Assembly (NCBI RefSeq): GCF_011745625.1
Contig: NW_027191468.1
Location: forward strand, 124,001 to 188,000
DNA length: 64,000 nt
Origin: Cladosporium halotolerans
Taxonomy: Eukaryota
Direction of reading: 5' to 3'
The notes under the pieces are model-generated. The model was given only the letters and a program-made list of their open reading frames with translations. It searched no databases and was not told where the DNA came from. Made by a program: the position numbers and the translations under genes. Of the stretch, positions 27,788-31,420 are shown in pieces. How positions within the stretch are numbered: position 1 is the stretch's first letter; the number at the start of each line of letters is the position of its first letter.

Positions 27788-28996
27788 TCACGCAATCTTC
27801 CTTCCGACGTTGCCAACGCCCTTGCCAACAACGCTGACCATGACCTCGCCCTCCTCGTCACCATCCTTCAAACCCCATCCAGCCATGCCAAACGTGCGCA
27901 GATCCCTCGCCAGCTGCACAATATTCTCCGAAGCCAGCACATCTCTGCCAATAGAGATCCTGCCCACGTCCTCGCTGCCCATAGCCATGAGCGTCAGCAC
28001 TGTCGAAGCCGCAACCTCACTAACGCATCCTCCCTGCTCAATAGCCTCTAGCAGCTGGAACGCACACTTTCGGCCCAGCTCCTCCGGTGTTACGCCTCCT
28101 TGCGGCGGACTCGCCGTGTCGGCCGAATACATGACATAGCTGTTCGTCTCCGCGACCAAGCTCAGTCCAAAACCCAACCCCGTCTTGACCTTCGCATTCG
28201 GGTTTCCCTTCTCCGGCGCCGGCACAAGTGGTGCGCCGCTCATGTCGGAGAAAATGTACGTGTCCGGCACGAATTCGTTCAGCACGCCTCTCGCCGCCTC
28301 GATGATCCTCGCATTGTTCGCGCCTGCCACGCCCGTCGCATAGGCCACACCGCGGATCTTCTTCACGCTGCCCGCACTCATCAGGTGCACCGTCTTCGGC
28401 AACCGCACCTGCTGCCCGAACACCAGCTGGACCTCTCCGCCTCCTCCCTTCCCTCCACGGCCGGGGTTCGAGCGCTTGAGCACCCGCACCTCAATCTCGC
28501 GCTCAATCCCAAAGCTCTTAAAAACCGGCAGCACAGCCGTGCGGACCGTATCGACGCTGACATCGCCGTGCTCCGTCGCACTCGTGATAACGCCGGGTCC
28601 CTTAAACAGCACATTCACCTGCGCCTTCGCAAACGGCGCGAGCAGACACAGCGGGATCAGAAAGTAGCTCAGGCCCCTCGTGTTGTCCGCCGGCAGCTCG
28701 TGCGTGACGACACCGCCCGCGGCGCCGTAGCCCGCCGCGGAGCCCGCGATCAGGCCGGGCTTGTAGGCGACGGTGGTGCCGGTGTAGGAGAACTCGATCT
28801 GCGAGCCGTTGGTGATGGCGTCGAGGAGGCGGAGCAGCGATACCTCGTGCGGGGCGAGGCCGGGGGCGGTGTGAGAGGAGGCGCGGATCTGCGAGATGCG
28901 GACGGTGCGGCCGGTGAGGGTTGCGAGGACGAGGCGTTGCGCGAGGTGCTTCGAGCCTGTGAATTTGAGGGCTGGAGGGCCGGTTGGGGCGGCCAT
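27788..28996 (-). CDS. RCL1: RNA 3'-terminal phosphate cyclase-like protein (18S rRNA biogenesis)
   Basis: RLVLATLTGRTVRISQIR, PGLAPHEVSLLRLL, TNGS.IEFSYTGT, GGGEV, GFGLSLVAET and GSEDVGR motifs; ends G.GVGNVGRKIA. Confidence 0.95.
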   Translation of the reverse strand: MAAPTGPPALKFTGSKHLAQRLVLATLTGRTVRISQIRASSHTAPGLAPHEVSLLRLLDAITNGSQIEFSYTGTTVAYKPGLIAGSAAGYGAAGGVVTHELPADNTRGLSYFLIPLCLLAPFAKAQVNVLFKGPGVITSATEHGDVSVDTVRTAVLPVFKSFGIEREIEVRVLKRSNPGRGGKGGGGEVQLVFGQQVRLPKTVHLMSAGSVKKIRGVAYATGVAGANNARIIEAARGVLNEFVPDTYIFSDMSGAPLVPAPEKGNPNAKVKTGLGFGLSLVAETNSYVMYSADTASPPQGGVTPEELGRKCAFQLLEAIEQGGCVSEVAASTVLTLMAMGSEDVGRISIGRDVLASENIVQLARDLRTFGMAGWGLKDGDEEGEVMVSVVGKGVGNVGRKIA

Positions 28997-29455
28997 GGTT
29001 GTGTGTATGCTGACGGTTGGCGGGGAGGTGTCGTAGCCAGAGGAATTATGTCTTATTCCAGTAATTGTGCCGTAGAAGTATTATTAGTGAGGTCCTCGGC
29101 CCGCAAGAACGCAGCGCATCGGAAATGGTGGAAGTAGTGGTCTTCGGGGATCTTCAAGAAAGTCGCAAACTTCACGCTGTACCCCAGAAAAATCTCAAAA
29201 GCTTCCCGCGCTGCGAGACACCGAGCCGAGGAAGGCACGTGAAAGGCCGTCAACAAACCAGCGAATAAGCTTATATTTACTGCAAGTGTTCACTTCCGCA
29301 CACTGCAGCTTGCTGAACAACACGAACAGCAAGGGACACGCCATCACGTCCGCACACTGCAAATCTCAAGACGCGCTTGCCACGCCGTCCAAGAGAACAG
29401 ACTCGCATCTCCAGTGGAAGATTCGTGCCTACTATATGAAGTCGACGAGCACTCT

Positions 29456-30110
29456 CGTCATCGTCGCACGCAACTGCCACTTGCTTGCAGAGAAAACTCT
29501 TACCAGGACACTGAGTTCAGTGAGCGCTCACGCCGGCATCACCAAGCAATTGCCACTTGCTTGCAAGGATTACCATCGCAGGACATCGATGAAGTTGATG
29601 AACGTTCTCATCATCGTCGGATACAACTTCACCTTGCTCGGGAAGGCAACAAAATATGACTGCCCTCGGCGGCATCGCAAGCAACTGCCACTTGCTCGCG
29701 AAGATCACAACTCCAGAACACTGATGAAGTCCATGACCGCTGTTGTCATCGTCTCCCGCAACTGCCACTTGCTCGCGAAGACAATGACATAAGGTCACCG
29801 AGACCGCTGAAAGTCTTTTCGGCGTCGCAAGCAACTGCCTCTTGCTCACGACAGCTGCAATCTCAGGACACCTGTGAACATTAGATCGACGATAGACCTG
29901 GTCAGCGTCGCATGCAACCACCGCTTGCTCGCGACAGTCGCAATATCCGAACGTGACTGGATGATGAAGTCTTGGTTATCACCGCATGCAACTGCCACTT
30001 GCTCAGCGACGATGACCAAGACCTTTCTTCATCATTCGACCAGGACATCTACGAACCTTTGGTCGACGAACATACTCGCTGGGATCGCATGCAACTCCCA
30101 CATGGTAGCG
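29456..30110. repeat. Degenerate array of nine ~30-bp palindromic repeats (core CAACTGCCACTTGCT) with variable spacers
   Basis: Core starts at 29471, 29547, 29624, 29682, 29759, 29832, 29915, 29989 and 30092. Spacings are 76, 77, 58, 77, 73, 83, 74 and 103. Confidence 0.85.
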
Positions 30111-30577
30111 TATCGCGGGCATGCTCCCGATTGCGTCTTAGGTAGTGACAGCCAACGGCCAACAACCCAAAGACTCCCTCGGCTCACAACTCCATCACCG
30201 GACCGATTGGTGAAGCAAAGGGTTTGTCATTCTGAGCTAGCTTTTCTGGCCGGAAGAAAGGAAATTTTTTCAATGCAGGATCTTCTGCCTGCCTTCGCCA
30301 TCCGCAACTGTCGGGTATCTCGAGAAGACGCTTCTGAAACTCAGCTCGCTCCGAGTGTCCTTCCGTGGGAGCAGCCAGACTCTCCGCAAATCATGAATTA
30401 AAAGCAACGCACACGCAATCATTTGTATCCCTCGGTCTTGATGGCTGTCTAGCTGCCCTCGCGGGCAACCAGACATCTCCCTTGCGAGGGATGTTGGCGA
30501 CTTGTAGAGGAAAGCCAGTGTAACCGGTCGAGTTGACGGTCGGGTTGGGTTGATGAGGGTAGGAGCTCTGTCGCTCT

Positions 30578-31420
30578 TTACCAGCCACCGCCGCCCTGCT
30601 GGCCCTGGTAGCCGCCCTGCTGGCCGTAGCCGCCCTGGCCTGGAATGTGTCAGCTGGCTGTCCCGTGCAGGCGTTGGTCGAACGAGAAGATCGTATGATG
30701 CTCACCCTGGTAGCCTCCAGTAGTAGTGCCACGCCAATCGTTGGAGCCGCCATAGCCTGTAAGTGGAGTTTAGTATCCGTGTCGCGGAGATCAAGATGAT
30801 GAGGACCATCTTACCGCCGCCCTGCTGGTAACCACCGCCACCGTTGTAGCCGCCCTGGGACTCATAGCCGCCCTGGCCATAGCCGCCGCCGTAACCACCG
30901 CGGCCGCGACCAGAGAATCCGCCTTGGACAGTATCAGTGCCTGTTGTTCGCTCAAGTAAATTTTTGAACATACCACGAGAGCCGCCGAAGCCGCCACCAC
31001 CGCCGGTGCGCTCGGATGCCTTGTCGACGCGAATGGTGCGACCGTCGAACCTAGTAGATGAGCAAGTCAGCAGTGAAGTAAGGCGACGGTGACTGAGCGC
31101 ACTCACTCGACATTGTTCATGCTCTGGATCGCGGCATCGGCCTCGGAGTCCTGAGCAAAGCGGACAAAGCCAAAACCACGGCTACGACCGGTGTCGCGGT
31201 CCTTCACGACGATCTGTACTTGTCAGCGATGCAGGTGCAATGGCGAGTGAGGGATACGCACAGCCTCCTGGACCTGGCCGAACTCCTCGAACTTGGAGCG
31301 CAGGGTCTGATCGTCGGTGTGCCAGGCGAGGCCGCTGGTGTGGTGCGTTAGCTTGCAATGAATCGTTTCGGCCGCGCCGTGTGATGGCGAGGAATCGCAC
31401 CCGATAAAAAGCTTGGACAT
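30578..31420 (-). CDS. Glycine-rich RNA-binding protein (RRM plus GGY-rich tail; exons 31420-31401, 31334-31262, 31213-31107, 31050-30974, 30922-30815, 30756-30706, 30639-30578)
   Basis: RNP2 KLFIGGLAW, RNP1 [10 protein letters not shown] and [10 protein letters not shown], followed by GGY/QG repeats; six canonical introns keep frame. Confidence 0.94.

Follow-up and report, generated by a model that had tools for sequence, protein, structure and literature searches.

Terminator sites T1-T10 of the mouse rDNA spacer, the ~18-nt Sal-boxes bound by TTF-I, are located downstream of a highly transcribed unit. Tandem repeats of yeast promoters are reportedly unstable (Vinces et al. 2009, 'Unstable tandem repeats in promoters confer transcriptional evolvability'). 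Fuzzy tandem repeats of murine Rbl2, Ncoa1 and Klhl26 contain p53 response elements, which match the consensus of a known factor and have demonstrated binding and gene regulation (Simeonova et al. 2012, PMC3386156).

Here we describe a repeat array found in a 64-kb window (the whole stretch of DNA analysed, 64,000 nt) of the fungus Cladosporium halotolerans. The original prediction, made from the sequence, presented it as a CRISPR-like row of palindromic repeats with variable spacers, though not as a true CRISPR. According to the data described below, the array is probably (we would put it at about 0.6) a lineage-specific degenerate higher-order tandem repeat, i.e. a minisatellite, of an Ascomycete.

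Results

Anatomy and genomic context of the array

The array (677 nt) occupies positions −440 to −1116 relative to the ATG codon of RCL1, between this codon (28996) and the poly(A) end of the mRNA of a glycine-rich RRM gene (~30221), both genes being encoded by the minus strand (Table 1). RCL1 clusters belong to Eukaryota, Ascomycota being the commonest, and spliceosomal GT-AG introns are removed from the flanking genes in RNA contigs, five of them from the RRM mRNA. The predicted context was correct, with 460 nt to RCL1 and 468 nt to the RRM stop codon. A tRNA search of 29000-30600 gave none. A 12-nt inverted pair with arms 939 nt apart was registered and is likely a chance one.

Table 1. Coordinates of the array, its constituents and neighbouring features within the 64-kb window
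Feature	Position	Strand	Details
Whole array	29436..30112	+	nine head-to-tail units, ~58-103 nt each; nhmmer unit profile
Units 1-3	29436-29506, 29512-29585, 29589-29656	+	nhmmer
Units 4-6	29656-29720, 29724-29797, 29801-29870	+	nhmmer
Units 7-9	29880-29953, 29958-30018, 30058-30112	+	nhmmer; unit 9 is an odd-class unit without partner
Core of unit 1	29470..29485	+	16 nt, GCAACTGCCACTTGCT
Starts of all nine cores	29470, 29546, 29623, 29681, 29758, 29831, 29914, 29988, 30091	+	
Dimer 1 (units 1+2)	29436..29588	+	153 nt
Other dimers	29589-29723, 29724-29879, 29880-30056	+	135, 156 and 177 nt
ATG-initiated ORF	29436..29792	+	118 codons, units 1-5; TAA 29790-29792
Extended palindrome around unit 8 core	29958..30037		~80 nt within 95 nt folded; −38.9 kcal/mol, z −5.98, 0/200 shuffles
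Patch abutting the last unit	30114..30179		64-66 nt, resembles ~100-copy sequence
RCL1-upstream blocks collinear with congeners	29182..29443		CCCCAGAAAAA 29182, AAGCTTCCCGCG 29199, GCAAGGGAC 29329, TATGAAGTC 29435
RCL1 (RNA 3'-terminal phosphate cyclase-like) coding sequence	27788..28996	−	single exon, 402 aa; RTC 7.8e-32, RTC_insert 4.1e-22
Glycine-rich RRM gene 3' UTR	30222..30580	−	stop codon 30578-30580; mRNA end ~30221/30222; RRM_1 found

The profile of the unit matched all nine copies with E from 2.3e-18 to 5.6e-12, a match by construction, as it was built from the same units; its next match (E 0.054) lies on the minus strand inside the array and the best one outside has E 0.37. Whole ~75-nt units fit this single profile and abut head to tail in the same orientation, which is the arrangement of a tandem repeat. 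Since they align contiguously, the “spacers” are diverged parts of the units. Thus, the number of nine repeats was predicted correctly, while the repeat-plus-spacer layout is contradicted and the array bounds, originally set at 29456..30110, have moved to those of the unit profile. The last unit, expected to be the most degenerate, is indeed such by whole-unit score, whereas by core mismatches it is unit 3. The array is absent from the output of Tandem Repeats Finder.

Allowing up to 3 mismatches, GCAACTGCCACTTGCT has 10 matches in 64 kb, all of them inside the array (eight plus-strand units and two minus-strand readings of units 2 and 4), against 0.73 expected by chance; 10 matches were reached in 0 of 100 shuffles. 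The core of unit 3 has more than 3 mismatches and was therefore missed by this search. Four of the nine cores are identical, two have one mismatch, two have three and one has four, and 26-nt copies around the core retain 73-85% identity to the reference copy. The core can be read as a 15-bp near-dyad GCAAnTGnCAnTTGC, self-complementary at 6 of 7 pairs like homodimer sites, with its asymmetric positions conserved as well as the symmetric ones.

Core-to-core spacings (76, 77, 58, 77, 73, 83, 74 and 103 nt) and their alternate sums (153, 135, 156 and 177, every one a multiple of 3) are exactly as predicted. So is the division of units into two classes: ungapped identity of leaders is 47% within the odd or even class and 28% between classes, the latter being no above chance. 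The odd-unit leader ATGAAGTC...CATCGTC shows 54-75% identity among odd units, and the four ~150-nt dimers align over their full length. Alternate units are, in leaders and dimers, more alike than neighbours, as in a higher-order repeat.

Uneven conservation inside the units and its possible functional reading

Within-class pairwise identity is 87% in the core and 58% elsewhere in the unit. At non-CpG columns mismatches to the consensus were registered in 5 of 116 core cells and in 61 of 271 cells outside, so that the 16-nt core is ~5 times better conserved than the rest. An explanation of this difference by CpG hypermutability was rejected, the excess persisting at non-CpG columns, and no RIP-like transition bias was seen there (32 transitions versus 29 transversions). 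The excess conservation of the core is not predicted by neutral decay alone and counts against the minisatellite reading. The original prediction would have accepted a neutral minisatellite if, besides being untranscribed, the array proved unconserved and its cores had diverged as much as its spacers; lack of conservation was found in relatives (see below), whereas the divergence is unequal.

Every core variant occurs only once, a pattern equally compatible with purifying selection and with exchange between units. Several short words are common to neighbours of different class: units 7, 8 and 9 all have GCATGCAAC directly before the core, TTGCTTGCA follows it in both units 1 and 2, and CGACAG..GCAAT is common to units 6 and 7. 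Trailers of adjacent units are identical at 45% of positions versus 34% for non-adjacent units of the other class. These few sites suggest that short tracts may have been exchanged between neighbours.

A sibling lineage, ~96% identical, keeps all nine units on a DNA contig of 29,870 nt, which spans the array at single-copy depth. Its detailed indels are −2 at 29741, −11 at 29946, −1 at 29962 and −1 at 29964; together with three further indels they make 42 gap letters over 28826-30179. None of the detailed ones has the size of a unit and the copy number does not vary between sibling and window, although such variation between close lineages is characteristic of minisatellites. Equal copy number in two lineages means that the array is not a visibly unstable minisatellite. 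Sibling substitutions in units 1-7 hit 3 of 112 core nucleotides and 12 of 382 elsewhere; the cores are not lower.

The best functional rival remains a bank of candidate protein-binding sites, in view of the much higher conservation of the cores. In that case nine GCAAnTGnCAnTTGC elements and four CRE-like ATGAAGTC boxes of the fuzzy repeat would recruit a dimeric DNA-binding protein, and the array would serve as an upstream activating region of RCL1 or as a zone of termination or insulation separating RCL1 from the highly expressed RRM gene. Core conservation, the homodimer-like symmetry and the position upstream of RCL1, directly behind the RRM poly(A) site, all argue for it, as does the precedent of species-specific fuzzy repeats with p53 response elements (PMC3386156). 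However, the candidate motif has no known factor assigned to it, recent substitutions strike cores as often as spacers, and the asymmetric positions are kept as well as the symmetric ones. Moreover, none of the 26 relatives has the core in the corresponding promoter, nor does the core recur elsewhere in the 64 kb; therefore it is not an established control element of RCL1. On balance we consider such a bank possible, though unlikely.

Absence from related RCL1 loci and age of the array

Relatives were represented by 26 RCL1 loci with 62-97% amino acid identity over the N-terminal 180 aa, of which 19 retain the RRM gene upstream of RCL1. None of the 26 aligned to 29010-30221 of the window, none contained two or more words resembling the core when up to 3 mismatches were allowed, and neither the unit nor the dimer profile gave anything in them at E<0.1. 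Sensitive blastn of their intergenic regions registered one 26-nt match only (E 0.16). The block 30222-30370 of the RRM 3' UTR is kept in relatives, and at the 11 loci where it could be placed the RRM-RCL1 intergenic distance is 511-790 nt, as compared with 1225 nt here; the excess approximates the 677 nt of the array. The array has roughly doubled the distance from the RRM poly(A) site to the RCL1 promoter.

Four-fold sites of RCL1 differ by 56-65% from every relative (12 loci), while non-core identity of the dimers is 58%, so the age of the array appears consistent with its gain after the split from these relatives. Between these species neutral sites have come close to saturation, so that an old array evolving neutrally would escape detection in the relatives, and it is the length argument alone that supports its absence there. 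In a more distant relative a contig joins RCL1 to 30306 with ~686 nt between them; given the short side of this joint (22 nt, 80% likeness) it is counted only as consistent with the other evidence.

Several blocks upstream of RCL1 are collinear with congeners, and the last of them, TATGAAGTC, coincides with the first bases of unit 1. In 8 of the 11 relatives the intergenic region has a single ATGAAGT, at 368-576 nt from the RCL1 ATG; in the window this word has four copies, every one inside the array. These collinear blocks suggest that the array may have originated in situ, and a box present at one collinear place in relatives and multiplied here also speaks for the bank of binding sites. Beyond a 9-mer, the search for a progenitor unit in relatives gave nothing. 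Short CATCATCG-type repeats near the RRM 3' end of three relatives were considered as a seed and rejected, the likeness being not significant.

A gapped pattern of two cores had no loci in either metagenome or viral contigs. Its one locus in prokaryote genomes belongs to a bacterial tandem repeat with a period of ~65 nt, in which the similarity is confined to a 16-18-nt word; it was treated as chance, since a tandem repeat of such period having the first word also has the second. In the literature on Cladosporium minisatellites no such array appeared among the matches listed, as judged by their entries.

Coding potential

The 118-aa ORF is publicly annotated, its exact sequence being present in NCBI and UniRef. 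Plus-strand frame 0 has only two stops in 436 codons (29091-30399), at 29790 and, 18 nt further, at 29808 (TGA 29808-29810), versus ~17 expected by composition. No frame is fully open, as was predicted; for frame 0 this has to be qualified. Two stops instead of ~17, as well as dimer lengths that are all multiples of 3, look like past coding constraint and go against the minisatellite reading. Together with the ATG AAG that opens odd units, they also favour a young protein-coding gene born from the repeat, whose 118-aa ORF would be expressed, perhaps from TATATTTA at 29272.

Other properties of the locus make this gene quite improbable. Paralogous dimers are under no coding constraint: pN/pS among them in the open frame 0 is 0.70-1.22, not below other frames. 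Core copies fall into two reading frames (RNCHLLA and KQLPLA), and further downstream the open frame runs antisense to the RRM 3' UTR. The sibling has frameshifts and an ORF of only 73 aa, a form found on 24+3 contigs, and its eight substitutions within the ORF, read by position, comprise 2 synonymous and 6 replacement ones. The ORF has no Pfam family and no homologs elsewhere: among 1.84 billion representative proteins only four matched, each of them an ORF called either at the locus itself or on the adjacent high-copy patch. Neither purifying selection on an open frame nor homologs elsewhere, the two signs of a repeat-protein gene or its pseudogene, were thus observed. The decayed repeat-protein gene proposed originally is not supported either, having no intact or broken ortholog outside the locus, and its supposed HRRxQLPLA frame is not the open one. 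Most likely the annotated ORF is a by-product of the repeat.

RNA structure and transcription

The originally suggested multi-hairpin non-coding RNA, or else a small-RNA precursor transcribed from the array, including the long hairpin of unit 8, would be in line with the folding of the whole array, which is better than that of shuffled sequences for either strand (z −4.73 and −4.38; none of 20 shuffles in each case), and with the stability of the unit 8 palindrome (Table 1). Single units, however, are no more stable than their shuffles (z from −1.5 to +0.44; 16 to 131 of 200 fold as well). Because the excess stability is present on both strands, it is a property of DNA palindromes and inter-repeat pairing. 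The predicted inverted repeat does exist, with 68.9% of cells paired, but it is weak, no unit standing significantly above shuffles: 3 of its 10 pairs are (near-)invariant and 7 leave the consensus only by mispairs. Covariation over the units amounts to one compensatory cell, a level reached by 341 of 500 shuffles. Rfam at E <=10 (28900-30700 and 30080-30240) offered only archaeal sR44 with E 1.1 and 15 bits versus the gathering value of 45. Thus, the array has neither the compensatory pairs nor the curated family match by which a structured RNA is recognised, and the arms of the unit 8 palindrome are not kept in the sibling, being altered by the deletions at 29962 and 29964. Reading GATGAAG/CTGA as a box C/D snoRNA was rejected: the full C-box-like word is present in unit 8 only and is buried in a long stem.

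RNA contigs of two studies end the RRM mRNA at 30221 and 30222 with no loose ends, which weakly contradicts the idea that the array is an extended 3' region of this transcript and also disfavours a hairpin RNA derived from it. No RNA contig of these studies covers 28874-30113; RCL1 is equally uncovered, hence they are uninformative on transcription of the array. Four other RNA runs contain 0.16-0.19 of the words. Taken together, these data leave very little room for a multi-hairpin RNA.

The high-copy patch

The patch abutting unit 9 is present once in the window. In two DNA data sets its contigs are tiny and have depths of 850 and 2740-2950, versus 8.8 and 23.8 for single-copy contigs; DNA contigs break at 30114-30179. 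The patch was also found inside a 265-nt RNA contig with flanks unlike the window and in another context on an 8903-nt contig, and it aligned to 0 of the 26 related loci. The array might accordingly be inserted foreign or repetitive DNA (a mobile element or an rDNA spacer with sub-repeats) with the ~100-copy patch as its visible end: the patch adjoins the last unit, and relatives align with neither. This reading is highly improbable, since the high-copy likeness begins sharply at 30114 and ends near 30179, the flanks of the other context are unlike the translation of the window, no high-depth contig falls on the array itself at >=80% likeness, terminal repeats and target-site duplications are lacking (save for the inverted pair mentioned above), and viral contigs have no match.

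Discussion

On the preferred reading the array is neither a structured-RNA gene nor a protein-coding gene. If it is a minisatellite, its history may be imagined as follows. Some 75 nt of intergenic DNA upstream of RCL1 would have been duplicated, the segment probably beginning at the pre-existing ATGAAGTC box. The resulting ~150-nt dimer may then have been amplified ~4.5 times by replication slippage or unequal sister-chromatid exchange, and the copies presumably drifted apart via point changes and small indels in a nearly neutral manner. The better-kept 16-nt core could result from short-tract exchange between neighbours (concerted evolution), possibly with an addition of weak cis-regulatory constraint.

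A stronger version of the latter possibility, which has to be regarded as speculative and rather unlikely, assumes that the ATGAAGTC box and the new 15-bp dyad GCAAnTGnCAnTTGC, amplified nine-fold, became a multi-site control region of RCL1 or a roadblock/insulator behind the strongly expressed RRM gene, with selection holding the cores while the rest drifts. If true, a species-specific fuzzy repeat has rewired RCL1, a housekeeping gene of ribosome biogenesis, and, were the cores bound, the locus would be a clean fungal case of regulatory novelty acquired via repeat amplification beside an essential gene. As a lineage-specific minisatellite, the array as it stands is one more of its kind and of little weight. 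It demonstrates, nevertheless, that a CRISPR-like look in a eukaryote can arise by uneven decay of a tandem repeat, and that public annotation carries a “protein” that is most likely such a by-product. Uneven conservation within units, as here, is a cheap flag for candidate cis-elements.

Comparison with known systems

With CRISPR arrays the likeness is superficial: short, partly palindromic conserved cores follow each other at roughly regular spacing with variable sequence between them. CRISPR arrays belong to prokaryotic or viral genomes and combine near-identical 23-50-nt direct repeats with unrelated acquired spacers, whereas here the host is a eukaryote, the sequence between the cores shows homology from unit to unit, good preservation is limited to a 16-nt core, the cores are non-identical and the units are paired into dimers. 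The two neighbouring genes are RCL1 and the RRM gene, not cas. In rejecting a true CRISPR the original prediction was right.

The terminator boxes of rDNA resemble the array as repeated boxes amid variable sequence, and the array is located just past a strongly expressed gene and beside a patch similar to ~100-copy sequence. However, it lies outside rDNA and is likened to them by layout rather than by sequence, which makes this parallel a lead only.

The array may also be compared with the fuzzy repeats with p53 response elements. In both cases a short dyad-like element is preserved amid drifting sequence, conservation between species is poor, and the repeat is non-coding and situated beside a gene (PMC3386156). 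The murine repeats reside in a mammalian intron and are bound by their factor, whereas the fungal array is intergenic and its sites are candidates.

In anatomy the array resembles fungal intergenic and promoter minisatellites: head-to-tail units of tens of bases on the promoter side of a gene, restricted to one lineage and probably produced by slippage or unequal exchange; the two-level periodicity of monomer and dimer adds a likeness to higher-order tandem repeats. From the promoter repeats of yeast, which are defined by instability, the array differs in its equal copy number in two lineages, in the far greater divergence of its units (58% identity outside the core) and in having a single 16-nt block far more conserved than the remaining sequence.

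Architecture and genomic setting of the array

The nine cores named in the original prediction were all found on the + strand, each close to GCAACTGCCACTTGCT, with the spacings it gave (76, 77, 58, 77, 73, 83, 74 and 103 nt) and the same sums over alternate units (153, 135, 156 and 177 nt). When up to three mismatches were allowed, the 16-mer core had 10 matches in 64 kb, every one inside the array (the core of unit 3, having more than three mismatches, is absent from them), while ~0.73 matches were expected and 10 or more were reached in 0/100 shuffles. Blastn of 29000–30420 against the window gave no significant match beyond the region, and Tandem Repeats Finder did not report the array because its copies are too diverged. 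A unit-derived profile registered nine whole units, mutually abutting from 29436 to 30112, with E-values of 2e-18 to 6e-12, a match by construction, since the profile was built from those same nine units. Its alignments span the unit length and leave no unrelated spacers between units. Odd units (1, 3, 5, 7 and 9) have a common leader, ATGAAGTC...CATCGTC, with 54–75% identity among themselves, while the likeness of leaders between odd and even units is at chance level (28%). Since there are two unit classes, and alignment of the four dimers (odd plus even unit, 153, 135, 156 and 177 nt) is full-length, the array, judged by its sequence, is a degenerate higher-order tandem repeat and not the repeat-spacer array suggested by its CRISPR-like layout.

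The array lies at −440 to −1116 relative to the ATG of RCL1, whose nearest clusters are ascomycete. RNA contigs from two studies represent spliced mRNA of the glycine-rich RRM gene, with five GT-AG introns removed, and both stop at 30221/30222 with no loose ends, a weak hint that this mRNA may end there, ~110 nt short of the array. Thus, considering also the position of RCL1, the array separates the end of one transcription unit from the next promoter.

Coordinates of the array and of other features in the window
Feature	Position	Strand	Remarks
Two tandem 95-nt tRNA genes	79–173; 210–304	−	131–132 nt apart; one called tRNA-Arg(ACG), the other unassigned; both long enough for an intron
RCL1	27788–28996	−	RTC and RTC_insert domains
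RCL1-proximal short blocks CCCCAGAAAAA, AAGCTTCCCGCG, GCAAGGGAY, TATGAAGTC	29182–29443		collinear with relatives
18-nt direct repeat TCACTTCCGCACACTGCA	29290–29307; 29344–29361		94% identical, 54 nt spacing; just upstream of the array
118-codon ORF	ATG 29436, to 29792	+	exact product in NCBI and UniRef, i.e. publicly annotated
Cores (starts)	29470, 29546, 29623, 29681, 29758, 29831, 29914, 29988, 30091	+
Extended palindrome around the core of unit 8	29958–30037		~80-nt hairpin, −38.9 kcal/mol, z −5.98
64–66-nt patch	30114–30179		directly after the last unit; single copy in the window
Glycine-rich RRM gene	stop codon 30578–30580	−

Conservation of the core

Pairwise identity within a class amounts to 87% for the 16-nt cores (167/192 comparisons) versus 58% for the rest of the unit (386/669). 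Because the core was selected after the fact as the block with the highest conservation, any test is inflated; the contrast is nonetheless large. CpG decay was considered as its cause and is visible in the CpG-rich leaders, yet it gives no explanation because the difference holds at non-CpG columns, with 5/116 mismatches to consensus in the core versus 61/271 outside. Two explanations remain: short-tract exchange between neighbours or selection acting on the core because a protein binds it. Immediately next to the core, neighbouring units of different class have variants in common: units 7, 8 and 9 all read GCATGCAAC, units 1 and 2 both read TTGCTTGCA, and units 6 and 7 both read CGACAG..GCAAT; trailers of adjacent units are 45% identical versus 34% for non-adjacent units of the other class. 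If the core were a protein site, the fuzzy tandem repeat would be a putative site bank, employed in RCL1 control or in termination or insulation behind the RRM gene. In the 15-mer GCAAnTGnCAnTTGC, 6/7 pairs are self-complementary. Between the window and the sibling lineage, a close relative known from contigs of public sequencing runs, 3/112 core positions differ in units 1–7 versus 12/382 others; these numbers are small, and recent divergence, as read from the compared sequences, does not favour selection on the core. We rank the site bank second and consider it rather doubtful.

Coding potential and RNA structure

The earlier statement that no stop-free frame spans the array stands, but it overlooked + frame 0, which is almost free of stops: from 29091 to 30399 it is interrupted only by TAA at 29790 and TGA at 29808, while composition predicts ~17 stops. 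Dimer lengths that are all multiples of three, combined with this open frame, are mildly odd; for the lengths alone we estimate the chance at roughly 1–4%. The annotated 118-aa hypothetical protein consists wholly of repeat units 1–5, and translation of the core gives RNCHLLA in odd units but KQLPLA in even ones. The pN/pS among dimers in frame 0 is 0.70–1.22, that of the other two frames being no higher. Deletions in the sibling (2 nt at 29741, then 11, 1 and 1 nt further on) are accompanied by an ORF that ends after 73 residues, a form present on 24 contigs, while 3 others have a variant of it; two of its 8 substitutions inside the ORF read as synonymous. Pfam gave no match. Past 30222 the open frame overlaps the conserved RRM 3' UTR. 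A full HMMER pass of the read-through translation against 1.84 billion representatives returned four proteins: two are ORFs called on the array of the sibling, one comes from the strand antisense to the RRM 3' UTR in congeners and one from the patch following unit 9. The annotated protein most likely represents a false gene prediction, and the birth of a gene from the repeat is improbable.

In the proposed hairpin 68.9% of cells are paired, just 3/10 pairs are (nearly) invariant, and 7/10 leave the consensus pair solely through mispairs. The covariation check gave one compensatory cell, a level reached in 341/500 shuffles. Folded singly, the nine cores have z from −1.50 to +0.44, with 16 to 131 of 200 shuffles equally stable. 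On either strand the whole array is more stable than its shuffles (z −4.73 and −4.38), which is expected of repeated partial palindromes in DNA and is not strand-specific. Unit 8 with its extended palindrome is an exception; in the sibling, the arms of this hairpin have lost a single base at two places and have two replacements. Rfam gave a weak sR44 match and nothing else, and an RNA precursor produced from the array appears very unlikely.

In two DNA runs, tiny contigs that match the patch beside the array have ~100x the depth of single-copy contigs (850 vs 8.8 and 2740–2950 vs 23.8). The patch is also met within a 265-nt RNA contig with flanks unlike the window, and in a different context within an 8903-nt contig, flagged by its source as an unverified contaminant in a plant assembly, where an ORF runs across it (protein hit P0006). 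It was not found in Rfam and may be a captured piece of rDNA spacer or other ~100-copy sequence; that an inserted repetitive or foreign fragment accounts for the array is scarcely probable.

Distribution and origin

Half of the words of the stretch were found in 13 public runs from eight studies, and contigs of two of these runs were compared. The sibling lineage is ~96% identical across 28826–30179 (49–50 letters changed), and its contigs traverse the entire array with small indels only. Region 29137–29317 has no listed substitution, only a 1-nt insertion at 29315.

Searching metagenome contigs with the RCL1 N-terminus (180 residues) revealed 26 loci (62–97% identity), 19 of which have the RRM gene upstream of RCL1, as in the window. 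None of the 26 aligned to window 29010–30221 or had more than one core-like word at three mismatches, and unit and dimer profiles gave no match to them at E<0.1. A bacterial ~65-nt tandem repeat (L027, prokaryote MAG contig, 250–440) was rejected as chance: it has the core's 16–18-nt word only, the rest being unrelated. Four-fold degenerate sites of RCL1 differ by 56–65% between the window and 12 relatives from at least two clades, and neutral sequence is therefore near saturation. Missing alignable sequence alone is no proof that the array is absent, but the intergenic length points that way: the RCL1 ATG lies 511–790 nt from the conserved block at the 3'-UTR end in 11 loci (those with a placeable block, exact duplicates L013 and L015 left out) versus 1225 nt in the window, a difference close to the array length. 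The 58% non-core identity among dimers means less divergence than that of RCL1 four-fold sites from relatives, and would fit gain of the array after the split from them.

Unit 1 opens with block TATGAAGTC. Because the intergenic region of 8/11 relatives has a single ATGAAGT and the array has four, the latter may have grown in place from a segment beginning at the TATGAAGTC box, a lead drawn from a 9-mer only. The collinear blocks persist in congeners (L003, L005, L007, L012, L023–L026) despite saturated neutral divergence; CCCCAGAAAAA, AAGCTTCCCGCG, GCAAGGGAY and CRE-like TATGAAGTCAT are candidate RCL1 promoter elements. Short CATCATCG/TCA-type micro-repeats are present just past the RRM 3' end in L003 (543–582), L005 (536–558) and L026 (502–519; intergenic coordinates). 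They occupy about the same place as the array in the window, which suggests that the spot beyond the RRM 3' end is prone to repeats.

The best reading, to which we give a probability of about 0.6, is a lineage-specific, essentially neutral higher-order minisatellite. For a bank of protein sites, the closest precedent is provided by species-specific fuzzy repeats with p53 elements (PMC3386156).
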